DNA of 64,000 nt from an uncultured Acidobacteriota bacterium (GTDB lineage Bacteria; Acidobacteriota; Thermoanaerobaculia; Multivoradales; JAHEKO01). A program made the translations under genes and the position numbers. Shown here piece after piece: positions 1,552 to 26,684 of this stretch. Every line of letters begins with the position of its first letter. Within the stretch, counting starts at the first letter, position 1. The DNA lies in NCBI GenBank assembly GCA_963713825.1, contig CAVQNG010000005.1, positions 192,001-256,000 on the forward strand, given 5' to 3'. The notes below the pieces were generated by a model. The model saw only the letters and a list, made by a program, of their open reading frames with translations. It made no database searches and had not been told where the DNA came from.

Positions 1552-2433
1552 TCATGAAGGAGAGGAGATGCGTTCCTTGAAGTAGCCTGCGGCGTTGGCA
1601 AGTTGCCAGATTCCGAGCAGAGCCAGCGCTGTGGTGCGCTTCTTCAGCGGTAGCTCCTTCAGCGGCTGCCGCAACATCCCCGGCAAGCGTCGATGGAAGA
1701 CGGCGTCGTCACGCAGCTGGCCGGAGCCCCGCTCGGCCCGAAGGCGATGGTAGTGGTGAGCTCCGCGGCCATAGGTGAAGTGCTGTCTCCAGTACCTTTG
1801 AAGGCTCGCCGGGCGCGCGTGAATCAGGTGTGCCTCGGGAACATAGAGCAGATCGTGTCCCAGGTGACGCCAGCGATCGCACAGTTCCCGATCCTCCGAG
1901 GCGCGGGGAAAGAACTGGGGATCGAAACCACCGACATCCCGCAGCAGCTCTGCAGAGATCGCCATGTTGTTCGATGGAAAGAAGCTGGCACCCTGGCCGG
2001 ATTCGTTGTAGAAGCGATGGACGGCGTCGAAGATCAACTGATTGGTTTCGGAATAGGGGTCCCCGGGTTGCTGCGTGGTGCGTCCCCCGATCAGGGCCTC
2101 GGGGTGCTCCTCGAGCGCCGACTCGAGCGCTCGAAGCCATTCTCGGTCGATGAGGCAGTCGTCGTCGGTGAAGGCGATGAACCGCCCTCGTGCGGCTGCC
2201 AAACCCAGGTTGCGAGCCGGACCAGGTCCAGCGTTTTCCTGTCTGAGCACGGTCAACTCGAGGCGATCTCTCCAGGGCTTCAGCTGGGGCTCCAACGGTT
2301 CGGGAGTACCGTCGTCGACGACAAGGACCTCGAATTCGTCACCAGGTGGATCGACTTCGACTAGCGTGTCCAGACAATTGCGAAGCTGGTCGGGCCGGCC
2401 GTAGGTTGGAATGATGATGGAGAAGGTCAGCAT
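1552..2433 (-). CDS. Glycosyltransferase family 2
   Basis: Motifs FSIIIPTY, VVDDG, NAGPGPARNLG, FTDDDC (DxD), SEDREL. Confidence 0.9.
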   Translation of the reverse strand: MLTFSIIIPTYGRPDQLRNCLDTLVEVDPPGDEFEVLVVDDGTPEPLEPQLKPWRDRLELTVLRQENAGPGPARNLGLAAARGRFIAFTDDDCLIDREWLRALESALEEHPEALIGGRTTQQPGDPYSETNQLIFDAVHRFYNESGQGASFFPSNNMAISAELLRDVGGFDPQFFPRASEDRELCDRWRHLGHDLLYVPEAHLIHARPASLQRYWRQHFTYGRGAHHYHRLRAERGSGQLRDDAVFHRRLPGMLRQPLKELPLKKRTTALALLGIWQLANAAGYFKERISSPS

Positions 2434-2497
2434 CGCTCTGGAGGGGCAGCGTAGCACGGTGAAATGTCAGCCAAACGAGGCTACTGACGAAAAATCC

Positions 2498-2526
2498 TTG
2501 CCAAGGAGTCGGTGCGGGAATATGGT
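2498..2526 (+). promoter_or_regulatory. Putative sigma70 promoter for the FmdB gene
   Basis: TTGCCA-N17-TATGGT, upstream of an AGGAG RBS and ATG 2555. Confidence 0.4.
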
Positions 2527-2554
2527 TTGAGGGTATTGCGTTAGGAGTTGCGTC

Positions 2555-2782
2555 ATGCCTATGTACGAATACATCTGCAAGAGTTGTGACCACCAGTTCG
2601 AGATTCTGCAGCGCATGGGAGAGGGGGCCGAGGGCCTATCTTGTCCCAAGTGCGGTGAGAAGCGCGTCGAGAAGCAGTTCTCGACCTTTTCCAGTAGCGG
2701 TCCAAGTACCCCCACGTCGGCTGGTTTCAGTGCCGGTGCCGGTTGCGGCGGCGGCAGCGGCAGCGGCTTCAGCTGAGCGTAG
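2555..2782 (+). CDS. FmdB-family zinc-ribbon protein, predicted selenoprotein (TGA 2774-2776 = Sec; ends ..CGGGSGSGFS-U-A, TAG 2780-2782)
   Basis: MPMYEYxCxxC...CPKCG motif. The in-frame TGA is followed by GCG TAG and a SECIS-like hairpin, and selC is 130 bp downstream. If TGA is a stop, the CDS ends at 2776. Confidence 0.8.
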
Positions 2783-2820
2783 TGAATGAGCGGCCCGGCG
2801 GGCCGCTGAACTTTCACCAC
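2779..2820 (+). promoter_or_regulatory. Bacterial SECIS-like element
   Basis: Upper stem AGCGGCCC(2789-96)/GGGCCGCT(2800-07) with a GGC loop starting 20 nt after the TGA. Lower stem GTGAA(2782-86)/TTCAC(2813-17). Confidence 0.7.
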
Positions 2821-2911
2821 CTCCATCGGAAACAGAGTCGTCACGGGACTAGGCACTGCCTAGTTGGTGACTCTGTCGGGGAGAAGAGGTGTGATGGGCT
2901 AGAATCCACCC

Positions 2912-3011
2912 GGAAGCGCTCAGGGGCTGGTGCCTCTCGCGGTCTTCAAAACCGTAGTCCCGCGCCGGTGTCGGCGAGGGGGGTGGGTTCGATTCCCATG
3001 CGCTTCCGCCA
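2912..3011 (+). tRNA. selC: tRNA-Sec (anticodon UCA)
   Basis: 8-bp acceptor stem GGAAGCGC/GCGCTTCC, 6-bp D stem with TGGT loop, anticodon loop CTTCAAA (TCA 2946-48), long variable arm, 5-bp T stem with TTCGATT loop, G discriminator and encoded CCA. Confidence 0.97.
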
Positions 3012-3071
3012 CTGTCTTTCCCCCGCAAGCATGTCGATGGTCAATTCCCTCTTGGAGGTCGGCTGACTGTT

Positions 3072-3226
3072 GCGTGGGAATCGAACACGGAGGGGCAGGT
3101 ACGGGTGGTGCAGTGTAGGCGACCGTCAGGAGCCAACCCAGCTCGCTGAGCGCTTGCGCGAAGCGGCCAGAAGGCACAGTTCGTCCCGAGGTCGCGGGCG
3201 ACCTCGGTTCCCATGCGCTTCCGCCA
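3072..3226. repeat. selC-linked repeat / att-like remnant
   Basis: 3208-3226 is an exact 19-bp copy of the tRNA 3' end (2993-3011). 3072-3086 is a 14/15 inverted copy of 2987-3001. A 9-bp-stem hairpin lies at 3186-3207. Confidence 0.8.
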
Positions 3227-3342
3227 TTTGTTTTCAATAACTCAGGTAGTTTTCGGTTGTTCTGTGAGCTGCCTCACTGAGCTCCTCTCCCAATACAATT
3301 GGGGCGGGTCGAGCTGTGAATTACCCGATGAGGAGCCGTGCC

Positions 3343-3654
3343 ATGCGCATTCGCGATCTGTTTCGACGCACCAGGGACTGCGATCATGTCGCTGAGTTGA
3401 GCGAGGTCGAACCCAACTCACCGGATTCCTGCCTGCTATGTGTCGAGATGGGAGACACCTGGGTCAACCTGCGGTTGTGCCTGACGTGTGGCCATGTCGG
3501 ATGCTGCGATGCTTCGAAGAACAAGCACGCCACTGCCCACCACAAGGAGACAGGGCACCCGATGATCCAGTCCTATCAACCGAAAGAGCGGTGGCGGTAC
3601 TGCTATGTGGACGATCAGATGGTGACGGAGGCTGATACACCAGCACGCCACTAG
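3343..3654 (+). CDS. UBP-type (ZnF-UBP) zinc finger protein
   Basis: Motifs CDH, CLLC, WVNLRLCLTCGHVGCCDAS-NKHATAH, WRYCYVD. AGGAG RBS before ATG 3343. Confidence 0.9.
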   Translation: MRIRDLFRRTRDCDHVAELSEVEPNSPDSCLLCVEMGDTWVNLRLCLTCGHVGCCDASKNKHATAHHKETGHPMIQSYQPKERWRYCYVDDQMVTEADTPARH

Positions 3655-3776: not shown

Positions 3777-5318
3777 CTACTCGATCGTGGTGCTGCACCT
3801 GTCCGTGTCGCCGGTCTCGAAATTCTCGATGAAGATCGTAGGCTCGCCAAGGAAGGTCCACACCTTGCCGGCGTCGTTGGTGGTCAGGTCGTAGTAAGGC
3901 GCGGCGATGACCATGTCGTCATAGCCGTCGCCGTCGGTGTCGCCGGTCGACAGGGACCAGCCGAAGTAGGAGGACGCCTGGTCTCCCTCGACCGCCCAGT
4001 CTGCGTAGTCAAGCGGTCCTTCAGCGCCGAGACCATCCTCGGTACCAAGCCAGAGCAGGGTCATTCCGGCGTAGTTCACGGCACCGACAGTGTGCCCGAT
4101 CGCCCCGATCAGGACGTCATCGTAGCTGTCACCGTTGTAGTTCAGGACCCTGACATTGCCACCGAACTGGTCGTTCTCGGCTGCGCCGTATGCCAGCCAA
4201 TCGTTGTTGATCGGGTCTCCATCGACGTCTCCCAGACCGTCTGCGGAGCCATACCAGACGAGAGCCATTCCATCGTTCGTTTCCATGTGGTCATAGAGTC
4301 TGATACCTACGATGAGATCGTCGTAACCGTCGGCATCGAAATCACCGCTTGCCACGGCATTCATTGCAGATGTGCCCATTCTGGCGTCTGCCTGATCTCC
4401 CTCCGCCGTCCAGTCGGCGTTGGAAGGATTCCCTGGAGCGCCGAATCCTGTGGCCGATCCGTACCACACGAACACCTTGCCCTCGTTGGCCTGGCCGGCG
4501 TCATAGAACGGAGCTCCAATCAAGATGTCGCCGTATCCGTCGCCGTTGAGGTCACCTGCGGAACCGAGAACGGTGCCGAAGCCGGCATCGTCCCAAGGGA
4601 TACACTGATCACCCATTGCGTACCAGTCGGCGCTGGCTACAGTCGTGGTACCCACCCGCGCGTTCGATCCGTAGAACAAATACCCGTGGTTGATGATGGG
4701 CGCTGCCCCATTGCAGGCGTCGTAGCGCCGGGCACCGATGAGGATGTCGTCGTAGCCATCGTTGTCGAGATCGCCAGCAGAGGCCACCTCGAGGCCTGTG
4801 TGAGCATACAGAGCGGTCCCGGTGACTCTCCAATCCCAGTTAGCGTCTAGACCGCCATTCGATCCGTAGTAGAGGAAAACAGCTCCGTCATCTGACGTGG
4901 ATGAGTCGTAGTTCGGCATGCCGATGAGAAGATCGTCGTGGTTGTCACCGTCGACGTCAGCGGCTGCGACGGCTTCGCCGAAGTAGCCATGGGCGTTGAT
5001 GACCGGAGGATTGATGATCAGGTTGGGTGTGGTGGCCGGACCGTCTTCCGAGCCGTAGAACACCCACACCCTGCCGGAACGAACCTGGCCTGAATTGAAG
5101 AATCGCGAGCCTACCGCTACATCGGAGTAGCCGTCGTTGTTGAAGTCACCGGTTGCGCTGACCGATTCTCCGAGGAAGTTCTCCAGTTGATCTTGTTCGA
5201 AGTCCCAGATTGCGTCGGCGAGAGTGGCCCAGGCGCCGATGGCAAACGCGGCCGGAGAACTGACTAGAGAAATGAGAAACGCACCCACAAGAAGCCGCCG
5301 GATCAGCTTGTTGTCCAT
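3777..5318 (-). CDS. Secreted FG-GAP (integrin-alpha-like) repeat protein
   Basis: Signal peptide. About 7 repeats of the type FG..V..AGDxNGDGYDDxxIGA. C-terminal IFIENFETGD motif. AAGGAG RBS. Confidence 0.9.
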   Translation of the reverse strand: MDNKLIRRLLVGAFLISLVSSPAAFAIGAWATLADAIWDFEQDQLENFLGESVSATGDFNNDGYSDVAVGSRFFNSGQVRSGRVWVFYGSEDGPATTPNLIINPPVINAHGYFGEAVAAADVDGDNHDDLLIGMPNYDSSTSDDGAVFLYYGSNGGLDANWDWRVTGTALYAHTGLEVASAGDLDNDGYDDILIGARRYDACNGAAPIINHGYLFYGSNARVGTTTVASADWYAMGDQCIPWDDAGFGTVLGSAGDLNGDGYGDILIGAPFYDAGQANEGKVFVWYGSATGFGAPGNPSNADWTAEGDQADARMGTSAMNAVASGDFDADGYDDLIVGIRLYDHMETNDGMALVWYGSADGLGDVDGDPINNDWLAYGAAENDQFGGNVRVLNYNGDSYDDVLIGAIGHTVGAVNYAGMTLLWLGTEDGLGAEGPLDYADWAVEGDQASSYFGWSLSTGDTDGDGYDDMVIAAPYYDLTTNDAGKVWTFLGEPTIFIENFETGDTDRCSTTIE

Positions 5319-5404
5319 TTCGATCTCCTTTCGCTCGCAAGTCTCGAAGGTGATGACAAACATCAGTCGAGCACGAACTGTACTCGGCATCTCTGCAACT
5401 CGGG

Positions 5405-5520
5405 CCTTCGGTAGCTCGGCGGTCCTGGAGTCCTGCTGGGCGGAAGGTCCGTCCTGGAGGAGACAAGGACCCGTGGCTTTGCGCCCCCGACTCTCGTCGG
5501 GTTTGCCTTTGTCGTGACAC
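5405..5520 (-). ncRNA. c-di-GMP-I (GEMM-I) riboswitch
   Basis: Minus strand reads CACGACAAAGGCAAACCCGAC-GAGA-GTCGGGGGCGCAAAGCCACGGGTCC...GGACCGCCGAGCTACCGAAG. It matches the GEMM-I consensus (GGCAAAC, GNRA-capped P2, CGCAAAGC, ..ACCGA) and lies ~85 nt upstream of a CDS. Confidence 0.88.
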
Positions 5521-8668: not shown

Positions 8669-8719
8669 GTGTCTCGATTCGAGACGTTGACGATCGAGAA
8701 CTTGAGAGAGCCTGTTTCT

Positions 8720-9040
8720 ATGCCTCTGTATGAATACGAGTGTCAGTCCTGCGGCGAACGAGTCGAGGTCCTGCAGCGAGTCGGTGCCCCGGCGATCGGA
8801 GTCTGCGATGCCTGCGGTGGCGAATTGAAGCGACTTCTGTCAGCGCCCGCCTTCCAGTTCAAGGGCACTGGGTGGTATGTAACGGACTATGCCAAGAAAA
8901 ACTCCTCGCCGGCGGGGGAGTCGCAAGGCACCAACGAGGGCTCCAATTCGAAGCCCGAGGCGTCGGGTGACGCCAAACCGCAGACCAAGAGCAAGGCCGC
9001 CAAGGAGAGCTCAGACAAGAAGACTCCCGCCTCCAGTTGA
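8720..9040 (+). CDS. FmdB-family zinc-ribbon protein
   Basis: MPLYEYECQSCG...CDACGG...FQFKGTGWYVTDY, followed by a low-complexity tail. Confidence 0.9.
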   Translation: MPLYEYECQSCGERVEVLQRVGAPAIGVCDACGGELKRLLSAPAFQFKGTGWYVTDYAKKNSSPAGESQGTNEGSNSKPEASGDAKPQTKSKAAKESSDKKTPASS

Positions 9041-25238: not shown

Positions 25239-26684
25239 ATGTCGCAAGACGTCAGTGACCCCGAGCTGAGGGCAGCCCTCCACAGGGTTGCCGACATGGT
25301 TTCCGACTATTTGCAGGATGTCGGCCAGTACCCGGTGCTGCCGAGGGTCCAACCCGGAGAGGTGGCTTCGATGCTGCCGAGCTCGCCGCCGAGCGAAGGG
25401 GAGTCCCTGGACGCCATTCTCGACGATTACGCTCGAGTGATCGAGCCCAATGTCACCCACTGGAATCATCCGGGTTTTCTCGGCTACTTCTCGATCACGG
25501 GTTCGGGCCCCGGCATTCTGGGCGAAGTGCTGTCAGCCGCTCTGAATGTCAATGCCATGCTGTGGCGCACGTCTCCAGCCGCCACCGAGCTGGAGGAACG
25601 CGTCTGCGATTGGCTGCGGCAGATGCTGGGACTGCCGGACGACTTCAGAGGCCATATCAACGACACGGCCTCGATCAGCACCATGCTGGCCCTGGCGGCA
25701 GCGCGCCACGCGCAAACGGATCTGCAGGTCAGGGACCTGGGACTGGCGGGCAGGCCCGAAGTTCCTGAATTGGTCGTCTACACCAGCGATCAGGCCCATT
25801 CCTCTTGTGACAAAGCCGCCATGACCCTGGGCCTCGGCCTGGAGCACGTTCGCAGGATCGAGTCCGATGGGCAGTTCCGGATGCGCTTCGACTCCCTGGT
25901 CGAGGCAATCGATGCCGATCGGCGTGCGGGTCGCCGTCCCATGGCTGTAGTGGCGACGGCGGGGACGACTTCGACAACGAGCGTCGATCCCATCGATCGC
26001 ATTGCGGAGCTCTGTCGTCGAGAAGGGATCTGGCTGCATGTCGATGCCGCCTATGCCGGCAGCGCGGCGATTTGCCCCGAGCTCCGGGAGCAATTTTCTG
26101 GCTGGGAAAGAGCCGACTCGATCGTCTTCAACCCGCACAAGTGGCTGTTTACACCGATCGATTGTTCAGTGCTGCTGATGCGCGACGTGGATACCCTGCG
26201 GGAAGCCTTTTCCCTGGTGCCCGACTACTTGAAGACCGACGAGGAAGGTGTCACCAATCTGATGGATCTCGGGGTTCAGCTGGGTCGCCGGTTTCGGTCC
26301 CTGAAGCTCTGGATGGTCATTCGGACCTTTGGAGTCGAGGGCCTGCAGGTGCGGATCCGTGAGCACTGCAGGATGGCCAGGGATCTGGCTTCGATGATCG
26401 AGAGCGACCCCGACTTTGTGGTTGCGGCCCCTGTACCGTTCAGTGTTGTCTGCTTTCGGTGGCTGGTAGGGGACTCGCCCGAGCAGCAGGATCGGCTCAA
26501 TAAAGCGCTTGTCGACGAAGTCAATGCGCAAGGCCCGGTGTTTGTCACCTCCGCGGTGCTGAAAGATCGATACACGCTTCACCTGGCCATCGGCAACCTC
26601 AAGACGACCGACGAGCACATCCAGAACGCCTGGCACATCATCCGCACCTCAGCCGATAGCGTTTCAGCAGCTCAGCGGCGCTGA
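25239..26684 (+). CDS. Group II PLP-dependent (aromatic L-amino acid-like) decarboxylase
   Basis: Motifs THWNHP, SPAATELE, AHSS..KA, HVDAAYAG, NPHKW, LGRRFRSLKLW. Confidence 0.93.
   Translation: MSQDVSDPELRAALHRVADMVSDYLQDVGQYPVLPRVQPGEVASMLPSSPPSEGESLDAILDDYARVIEPNVTHWNHPGFLGYFSITGSGPGILGEVLSAALNVNAMLWRTSPAATELEERVCDWLRQMLGLPDDFRGHINDTASISTMLALAAARHAQTDLQVRDLGLAGRPEVPELVVYTSDQAHSSCDKAAMTLGLGLEHVRRIESDGQFRMRFDSLVEAIDADRRAGRRPMAVVATAGTTSTTSVDPIDRIAELCRREGIWLHVDAAYAGSAAICPELREQFSGWERADSIVFNPHKWLFTPIDCSVLLMRDVDTLREAFSLVPDYLKTDEEGVTNLMDLGVQLGRRFRSLKLWMVIRTFGVEGLQVRIREHCRMARDLASMIESDPDFVVAAPVPFSVVCFRWLVGDSPEQQDRLNKALVDEVNAQGPVFVTSAVLKDRYTLHLAIGNLKTTDEHIQNAWHIIRTSADSVSAAQRR

Follow-up and report, generated by a model that had tools for sequence, protein, structure and literature searches.

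A predicted FmdB-family selenoprotein with selenocysteine near its C terminus and a SECIS-like hairpin behind its stop codon in Acidobacteriota

In a 64,000-nucleotide (nt) stretch of DNA from an uncultured Acidobacteriota bacterium (assembly GCA_963713825.1, contig CAVQNG010000005.1, positions 192,001 to 256,000; here called the window), a short gene of the FmdB zinc-ribbon family lies upstream of the gene for the selenocysteine tRNA (tRNA-Sec, selC). We propose, with a probability of about 0.85, that the UGA at codon 74 of this gene is decoded as selenocysteine (Sec, U) by SelB acting on a hairpin in the 3' untranslated region, giving a 75-residue protein. An earlier reading of the window, made from the letters alone (the sequence-only reading), had suggested a 75-amino-acid (aa) zinc-ribbon protein with a flexible Cys...Sec tail, and the comparative evidence from the TGA, the tail, and the hairpin strongly supports that suggestion. 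What it had described at the site was confirmed in each particular. The open reading frame (ORF) ends where it had been placed, covering 2555-2776 of the forward strand and encoding 73 aa that end in GAGCGGGSGSGFS, after which the DNA reads TGA GCG TAG. When the TGA (2774..2776, +) is translated as U, the window ORF yields a 75-aa product with the C-terminal residues GFSUA, and the predicted selenoprotein gene extends to 2555..2782 (+), with its TAG stop at 2780-2782. This TGA, at codon 74, is the only one in frame.

The case for Sec at this codon begins with its conservation in relatives and with the codons that follow it. A first protein search returned 55 relatives, nearly all of which end at ..GCGxGxGF[ST], the pattern expected from truncation at one shared TGA. 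We then compared the DNA of 81 genes, the window gene plus those of 80 loci found mostly in metagenome-assembled genomes of Thermoanaerobaculia and other Acidobacteriota, reading past the first stop. The first stop was TGA in 77 of the 81 genes, and a second in-frame stop stood 1 to 2 codons further on in 67 of them, compared to 16 of 438 control ORFs (at least 150 aa long and taken from the same loci). Each of these 67 genes has TGA as its first stop. The tail behind it is 2 codons long in 62 of these genes and 1 codon long in 5, and the second stop is TGA in 48, TAG in 15, and TAA in 4. The first codon of the tail specifies Ala in 55 of the 67 (GCG in 30, GCC in 21, GCT in 2, and GCA in 2), and the second most often specifies Ser, by AGC or AGT in 16 genes and by TCC or TCG in 10. 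The use of both Ser codon families, together with the synonymous variation among the Ala codons, points to selection on the amino acid and thus to translation of the codons behind the TGA. On the upstream side, GF[ST] directly precedes the TGA in 58 of the 67 genes, and a tail Cys is found 6 to 11 residues before the Sec position in every one (6 to 8 residues in 62). In the window gene, the second tail codon is the TAG stop, while the three closest relatives carry TCC there, suggesting that the last residue is dispensable. Conservation of the TGA in homologues had been named as a check on the Sec proposal; the codon is kept, and the short tail behind it carries a coding signature. Elsewhere in these genomes TGA behaves as a normal stop: it ends 31 of the 63 long ORFs of the window and 249 of the 438 control ORFs, and the TGA-ending PntB and Tgt genes match their Pfam profiles over their full length.

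It had also been claimed that gene callers truncate this protein, and the databases bear this out, as F[STAI] is the exact end of 122 of the 140 database proteins closest to it. At source, the relatives are labeled no more specifically than "zinc ribbon domain-containing protein" or "putative FmdB family regulatory protein." When a profile was run against 1.84 billion cluster representatives, 18,534 matched at E values up to 1e-3, and 53 of the best 150 representatives have the GF[ST] end.

The second line of evidence is a SECIS-like (Sec insertion sequence-like) hairpin, AGCGGCCC-GGC-GGGCCGCT, at 2789..2807 (+), with its stem at 2789-2796 and 2800-2807 and its loop at 2797-2799. It begins 12 nt after the TGA and is located wholly within the 3' untranslated region. 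The sequence-only reading described it correctly, as an 8-bp stem with a GG-initial loop (GGC) that begins 20 nt after the TGA; opening the closing C-G pair gives the apex C-GGC-G. The stem energy is -15.3 kcal/mol, and a 25-nt fold reaches -16.8 kcal/mol (z = -3.5), with 0 of 200 shuffled sequences folding as well. The published bacterial SECIS (bSECIS) model, as set out in the legend to Fig. 2 of PMC13188914, calls for a loop of 3 to 9 nt with a G within its first two positions, a stem of 4 to 16 bp, a distance of 16 to 37 nt from the UGA, and an energy of -7.5 kcal/mol or lower; the apex usually reads N1-G-[G|U]-N-N2, N1 pairing with N2. Applied with perfect stems only, the model matched 65 of the 67 family members, 0 of the 14 relatives without a near second stop, and 55 of the 438 control ORFs. 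The two family members that failed (L008 and L055) have the same hairpin with one mismatch. Among the 65 passing hairpins, 64 have an N?G[G/U] loop, and the loop starts 16 to 22 nt after the UGA in 63 and 27 nt after it in 2. The median stem energy of the family hairpins is -13.4 kcal/mol.

The hairpin also covaries, which was a further check proposed for it. Across the 67 genes, aligned from the TGA to position +47, RNAalifold recovered the hairpin with compensatory changes in all six of its pairs, and when a seventh pair was added, all 7 stem pairs varied on both sides. Paired cells made up 89.8% of the stem alignment, compared to 70.5% in column shuffles and 38 to 47% when the 3' partner was slid along the sequence. 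Cells with two-sided changes numbered 68, against 16.6 in shuffles, and 0 of 500 shuffles reached the observed covariation score. In total, 31 distinct stem sequences are found beneath a near-constant apex, (C)G[G/U]N(G). A covariance model of the TGA, tail, and hairpin, whose training set included the window site itself, scored that site at 38.2 bits (E value of 2.5e-6), with the next best site in the 64 kb at 14.3 bits; the scan of the window gave no other convincing SECIS copy. The three features combined, TGA, a second stop close by, and the motif hairpin, are present in 57 of the 81 genes and in 0 of the 438 controls.

Outside its training sites, the covariance model also matched positions in the other loci, which we rejected as genes. 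At L036 5122, L013 7417, and L014 4884, nothing but short, Arg-rich open frames precedes the match. The match at L007 5144 is not gene-like, being a near-copy of the 3' end of the fmdB gene of that locus with CGA replacing TGA. This segment (L007 5144-5194) repeats the tail codons, the SECIS hairpin, and 25 nt beyond it; it is found 930 nt downstream and looks like a local duplication.

The tRNA-Sec gene, with anticodon TCA, was found by ARAGORN and by Rfam (RF01852, 69.2 bits against a gathering score of 47) at 2912..3011 (+). It is on the same strand as the fmdB gene and starts 135 nt after the TGA, in line with the roughly 130 nt noted before. Its D-stem differs from that of the relative L001 by a compensatory A-T to G-C change, and by sequence the window selC looks functional. 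A -10-like box, TAGAAT, is located at 2900..2905 (+), 6 nt 5' of the tRNA, and the sequence TA[GC]AAT occurs 6 to 7 nt before the mature 5' end of tRNA-Sec in 9 of 9 selC copies (the window, L001, L002, L003, L018, L027, L032, L048, and L068). In L032, selC has this box even though it is 1.7 kb from the gene. The presence of the box in all nine copies, the nonadjacent one included, indicates that selC probably has its own promoter, of which TAGAAT at 2900-2905 is probably an element; its position implies a transcription start at or beside the first tRNA nucleotide. The GGCTAGAATCC flanking the box is invariant in the window and L001 to L003. Folding of 2760-2915 also showed another stem-loop, a long one, in the interval from the gene to selC (2821..2883, +; core 2832-2876), with no T-run after it.

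Two repeats of tRNA-Sec sequence are found nearby. The 3' end of the tRNA gene (2989-3020) is repeated with 84% identity at 3204-3235, 215 nt downstream, and an inverted 15-nt copy of the T-arm is at 3072-3086. An integration or rearrangement at selC could have left them behind. Past selC, the first gene (3316-3654, +) encodes a 112-aa zinc-finger protein with a zf-UBP domain (PF02148, 5.4e-14), a domain that is better known from eukaryotic ubiquitin hydrolases.

The proximity of selC is circumstantial support for a place of the fmdB gene in selenium biology. In the window and in 7 of the 80 other loci, selC is downstream on the same strand within 56 to 136 nt; in an eighth locus, it is 1.7 kb downstream, and the remaining 72 of 80 have no selC within the fetched flank. 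On a tree of the 67 proteins, which has too few columns to be well resolved and was used only for this count, adjacency to selC requires no fewer than 3 changes along well-supported branches, so the linkage is either recurrent or repeatedly lost and is a minority state. In three loci (L027, L048, and L068), only 56 to 57 nt separate the Sec codon from selC, which places the SECIS DNA where the -35 element of selC would be; this overlap is suggestive.

These features bear on two proposals that would give the gene a role in control. In the first, the Sec-tailed FmdB protein would itself be part of the control of selenium use, feeding back on selC, a proposal that we regard as unlikely. It draws on the dependence of synthesis on Sec-tRNA(Sec), on the repeated siting upstream of selC, on the SECIS over the -35 region in the compact loci, and on the zinc ribbon of a family that was first named a putative regulator. 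The protein might then signal or buffer the status of selenium or Sec-tRNA, or use its Cys/Sec arm as a selenium carrier, equally a long shot. The second proposal, made in the sequence-only reading, is that fmdB, SECIS, and selC form a selenium sensor in which occupancy of the SECIS by SelB and Sec-tRNA controls selC on a shared transcript. The adjacent, co-oriented copies, which fall into no fewer than 3 tree groups, the lack of a terminator-like site between the gene and selC in the window, and the position of the hairpin in L027, L048, and L068 would fit such a sensor. However, the synteny that it presupposes is seen in only the 7 of 80 loci given above, every selC copy has its own conserved box regardless of distance from fmdB, and between the hairpin and the box the four closest relatives (the window and L001 to L003) share no sequence. 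The sensor module is therefore not supported, and we consider it quite unlikely.

Several observations weigh against Sec insertion at codon 74. Sec sites normally have Cys homologues, but Cys was found at the exact Sec position in 0 of the 140 closest database proteins, and alignment within the Gly-rich tail is loose. Among the best 150 cluster representatives, there was one clear case of Cys for Sec (P0073), which ends ..CGAGFCAN compared to ..CGAGSGFTUAN in the Sec forms. Many of the more distant members among these 150 end in CxxC or CxC plus one to three residues, and one of the compared loci (L014) and four database clusters end in CGPxCxCVH, which puts a Cys as far from the C terminus (-3) as the Sec would be; L014 has no SECIS-like hairpin. 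The Cys counterparts usual for a Sec site are thus only partly in evidence in these sequences. In addition, with only 1 to 2 codons that appear to be translated behind the TGA, the coding signal rests on few sites, and the loci are related, so that counts across them are not independent events. The hairpin figures apply to a 67-gene set that was itself chosen by the near second stop, and they are conditional on this selection. Genes for SelA, SelB, and SelD were not found by Pfam among the 51 long ORFs scanned in the 64-kb window. A weak SepSecS match of the ORF at 25239-26681 (1.1e-7) was disregarded because it is secondary to a full pyridoxal-decarboxylase match (6.5e-105). The neighborhoods of the gene are also not conserved: Pfam annotation of 17 representatives gave unrelated functions, and clustering of 622 flanking ORFs found no partner common to more than 7 loci, save frames overlapping the gene itself. 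Finally, the support for selenium incorporation, though strong, comes from sequence comparison, and the biochemical role proposed below is purely conjectural.

One alternative is that the TGA is an ordinary stop ending a 73-aa protein, with the hairpin acting as a terminator or stabilizing stem and the second stop as a back-up. TGA is indeed the commonest stop in these genomes, as the control ORFs show. GC-rich hairpins occur at the same distance behind the stop in 37 of the 438 controls, so the hairpin could serve in termination or transcript stability; every public annotation ends the protein at the TGA; and one relative (L013), which has neither the hairpin nor a second stop close by, shows a comparable ..DFS-TGA end. 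In contrast, no T-run follows the hairpin in the window, and a terminator scan of 2300-3400 returned 0 sites. A terminator would also leave unexplained the synonymously varying Ala codons, the Ser encoded by both codon families, the fixed position of a stop 1 to 2 codons behind the TGA, the constant loop over 31 different stems, and the identity of the first stop as TGA in each of the 67 genes. We therefore regard an ordinary stop as very unlikely. Least likely of all is readthrough by a near-cognate tRNA (Trp or Cys) or some other recoding in place of SelB and Sec-tRNA(Sec): the comparative data show a translated tail rather than the identity of the inserted residue, and the window scan gave no selA, selB, or selD, but the spacing, loop pattern, and energy of the hairpin agree with the consensus for a SelB-type SECIS, tRNA-Sec is encoded beside the gene here and in 7 other loci, and Cys counterparts of the kind usual for Sec sites occur at the equivalent position (P0073 and the CGPxCxCVH forms).

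Under Sec insertion, which we favor over these alternatives, the gene would encode an FmdB-type zinc ribbon (residues 1-45), a disordered Ser/Gly/Ala linker, and a tail with Cys64 and GGGSGSGFS-U74-A75. The ribbon matches PF09723 (Zn_ribbon_8) over residues 1-42 (E value of 8.1e-16, 58.2 bits against a cut-off of 34.4) and TIGR02605 (FmdB family) over residues 1-50 (E value of 2.2e-18, 66 bits against a cut-off of 31.3). Its cysteines, C8, C11, C30, and C33, are encoded by ordinary TGC or TGT codons in the window gene and are invariant or nearly so across the 67-sequence alignment. Residues 46-73 form a Ser/Gly/Ala-rich tail, and a degenerate, low-complexity C-terminal region behind the ribbon is part of the description of the FmdB family. 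An AlphaFold2 model from the 67-sequence alignment, which we took as a guide to order versus disorder only, had a mean predicted local distance difference test (pLDDT) score of 66.9, with moderately confident values of 74 to 84 for residues 1-40 and values below 50 at residues 51-63 and 65-71, so that the tail is predicted to be disordered. When the readthrough protein was searched against NCBIfam release 20, TIGR02605 alone exceeded its curated cut-off, and none of the models in that release is particular to the tail-Sec form. Among PDB sequences, the only matches to a profile were C2H2 zinc fingers, which we judged to be spurious. Upstream of the gene, an AGGAG Shine-Dalgarno-like motif can be read directly at 2543-2547 (+), and a sigma-70-like promoter match, TTGCCA-17-TATGGT, is found at 2498..2526 (+), 29 nt 5' of the ATG; it is a consensus match only, with 1 found against 0.2 expected.

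By analogy with the known bacterial system, the ribosome would arrive at the UGA at 2774-2776 while the hairpin at 2789-2807, 12 nt downstream, held SelB and Sec-tRNA(Sec), and selenocysteine would be delivered. One further residue, Ala, would then be added before termination at the TAG, which would leave the SECIS wholly in the 3' untranslated region. The adjoining tRNA-Sec gene would supply the decoding tRNA, apparently from its own promoter. The product would carry a four-Cys FmdB-type ribbon joined by the disordered linker to a tail of the form C-x(5-7)-U-A-x on a flexible arm. More speculatively, the Cys/Sec pair, tethered to the zinc ribbon, would most likely form a reversible selenenylsulfide or chelate a soft metal or metalloid. 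The protein would then probably work as a small module for redox or metal handling, not as an enzyme that has its own fold.

The sequence-only reading correctly named the FmdB family as one with predicted selenoproteins. Zhang and Gladyshev (2008, PMC2398784) predicted FmdB selenoproteins, from only 2 sequences of the Global Ocean Sampling (GOS) metagenome, but placed the Sec in a CxxU motif of the ribbon and not in a tail; reviews list the FmdB Sec motif as U/CxxU and UxxU (PMC9312934, PMC13188914). The GOS proteins share with the window gene the TIGR02605/COG2331 zinc ribbon and an in-frame TGA with a downstream SECIS-like hairpin. They differ in that Sec replaces a ribbon Cys, while the window gene has its four ordinary ribbon Cys codons and neither CxxU nor UxxU. 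In the tail-Sec form, unlike the GOS form, Sec would lie 2 to 3 residues from the C terminus of a disordered tail, with the SECIS behind the true stop. No account of an FmdB protein with C-terminal Sec turned up in the literature searches made, and BSepDB may contain an earlier description. The family and the recoding mechanism are thus known, and the position of Sec and a SECIS entirely behind the stop appear to be new and, by these comparisons, apparently widespread.

Other selenoproteins resemble the predicted one in part. KCU-star (NF033934, DUF466), a name read as a C-terminal KCU motif, is likewise a small bacterial protein with Sec at the extreme C terminus beside a Cys, which implies a SECIS at or beyond the end of its coding region; in contrast, it belongs to an unrelated family and ends Cys-Sec-stop rather than C-x(5-7)-U-A-x-stop. 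PMC13188914 lists it with only a "CU" motif. The readthrough protein matched neither NF033934 nor NF041197 (dual CXXC motif small selenoprotein) at E values up to 10, a search in which the HMMER filters discard most matches above about 0.1. Some animal selenoproteins, namely, thioredoxin reductase (GCUG) and proteins of the SelK/SelS type, also have Sec near the C terminus, a flexible Gly-rich tail, and a partner Cys, and our proposal of a selenenylsulfide on a swinging arm derives from this likeness. However, these proteins are not homologous to the one described here and come from another domain of life, the Cys and Sec are here 6 to 8 residues apart instead of adjacent, and the FmdB-type protein has no redox partner domain. 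Work on recombinant thioredoxin reductase has reportedly found that an untranslated SECIS just after a C-terminal UGA works in Escherichia coli. The fdhF SECIS of E. coli has a bulged U, in contrast to the hairpins of this family, which are untranslated and have a simple, perfect, G+C-rich stem of 6 to 9 bp without such a bulge. The two kinds are alike in their position just 3' of the UGA, spacing of 16 to 37 nt, small apical G[G/U] loop, and stable upper stem (PMC13188914).

The Sec-tailed form appears, from the loci compared, to be widespread in Thermoanaerobaculia and other Acidobacteriota. If confirmed, it would add a selenoprotein subfamily that is truncated in all annotations examined, as well as a clean natural case of a bacterial SECIS located wholly in the 3' untranslated region, with Sec 2 to 3 residues from the C terminus. 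The conserved Cys/Sec arm would then be a first functional handle on the very large and uncharacterized FmdB family. Selenoproteome surveys that require close Cys homologues or a long coding sequence behind the UGA can miss genes of this kind.

Sec-type genes with the same tail and hairpin were also seen in four loci (L033, L055, L063, and L071) from bins labeled Polyangiaceae, Cytophagia, Dehalococcoidales, and Deltaproteobacteria, which could be due to either transfer or mis-binning; the sequences of L063 and L055 are very divergent. One Thermoanaerobaculaceae subgroup (L044, L056, and relatives) has an ArsR-family helix-turn-helix gene upstream in 6 loci and a DUF302 gene downstream in 5, a context confined to that subgroup, and its members carry an extra conserved motif, MPCGAPSA, in the tail.

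The window encodes a second FmdB-family paralogue at 8669-9040 (+), which matches TIGR02605 (1.3e-17) with a ribbon that starts from an internal MPLYEYEC. Its Lys/Ser-rich tail has no Cys, Sec, or SECIS-like hairpin, and the gene sits between a DUF4388 gene (before) and a matrixin-like peptidase gene (after). In an Rfam scan of the window, only tRNA-Sec and a cyclic di-GMP (c-di-GMP) riboswitch reached their gathering scores; to our knowledge, Rfam has no bacterial SECIS family. The riboswitch, of the c-di-GMP-I-GGC type (5406-5516, -; RF03167, 72 bits against a gathering score of 59), is located just upstream of a gene for a 537-aa FG-GAP repeat protein (3777-5390, -).

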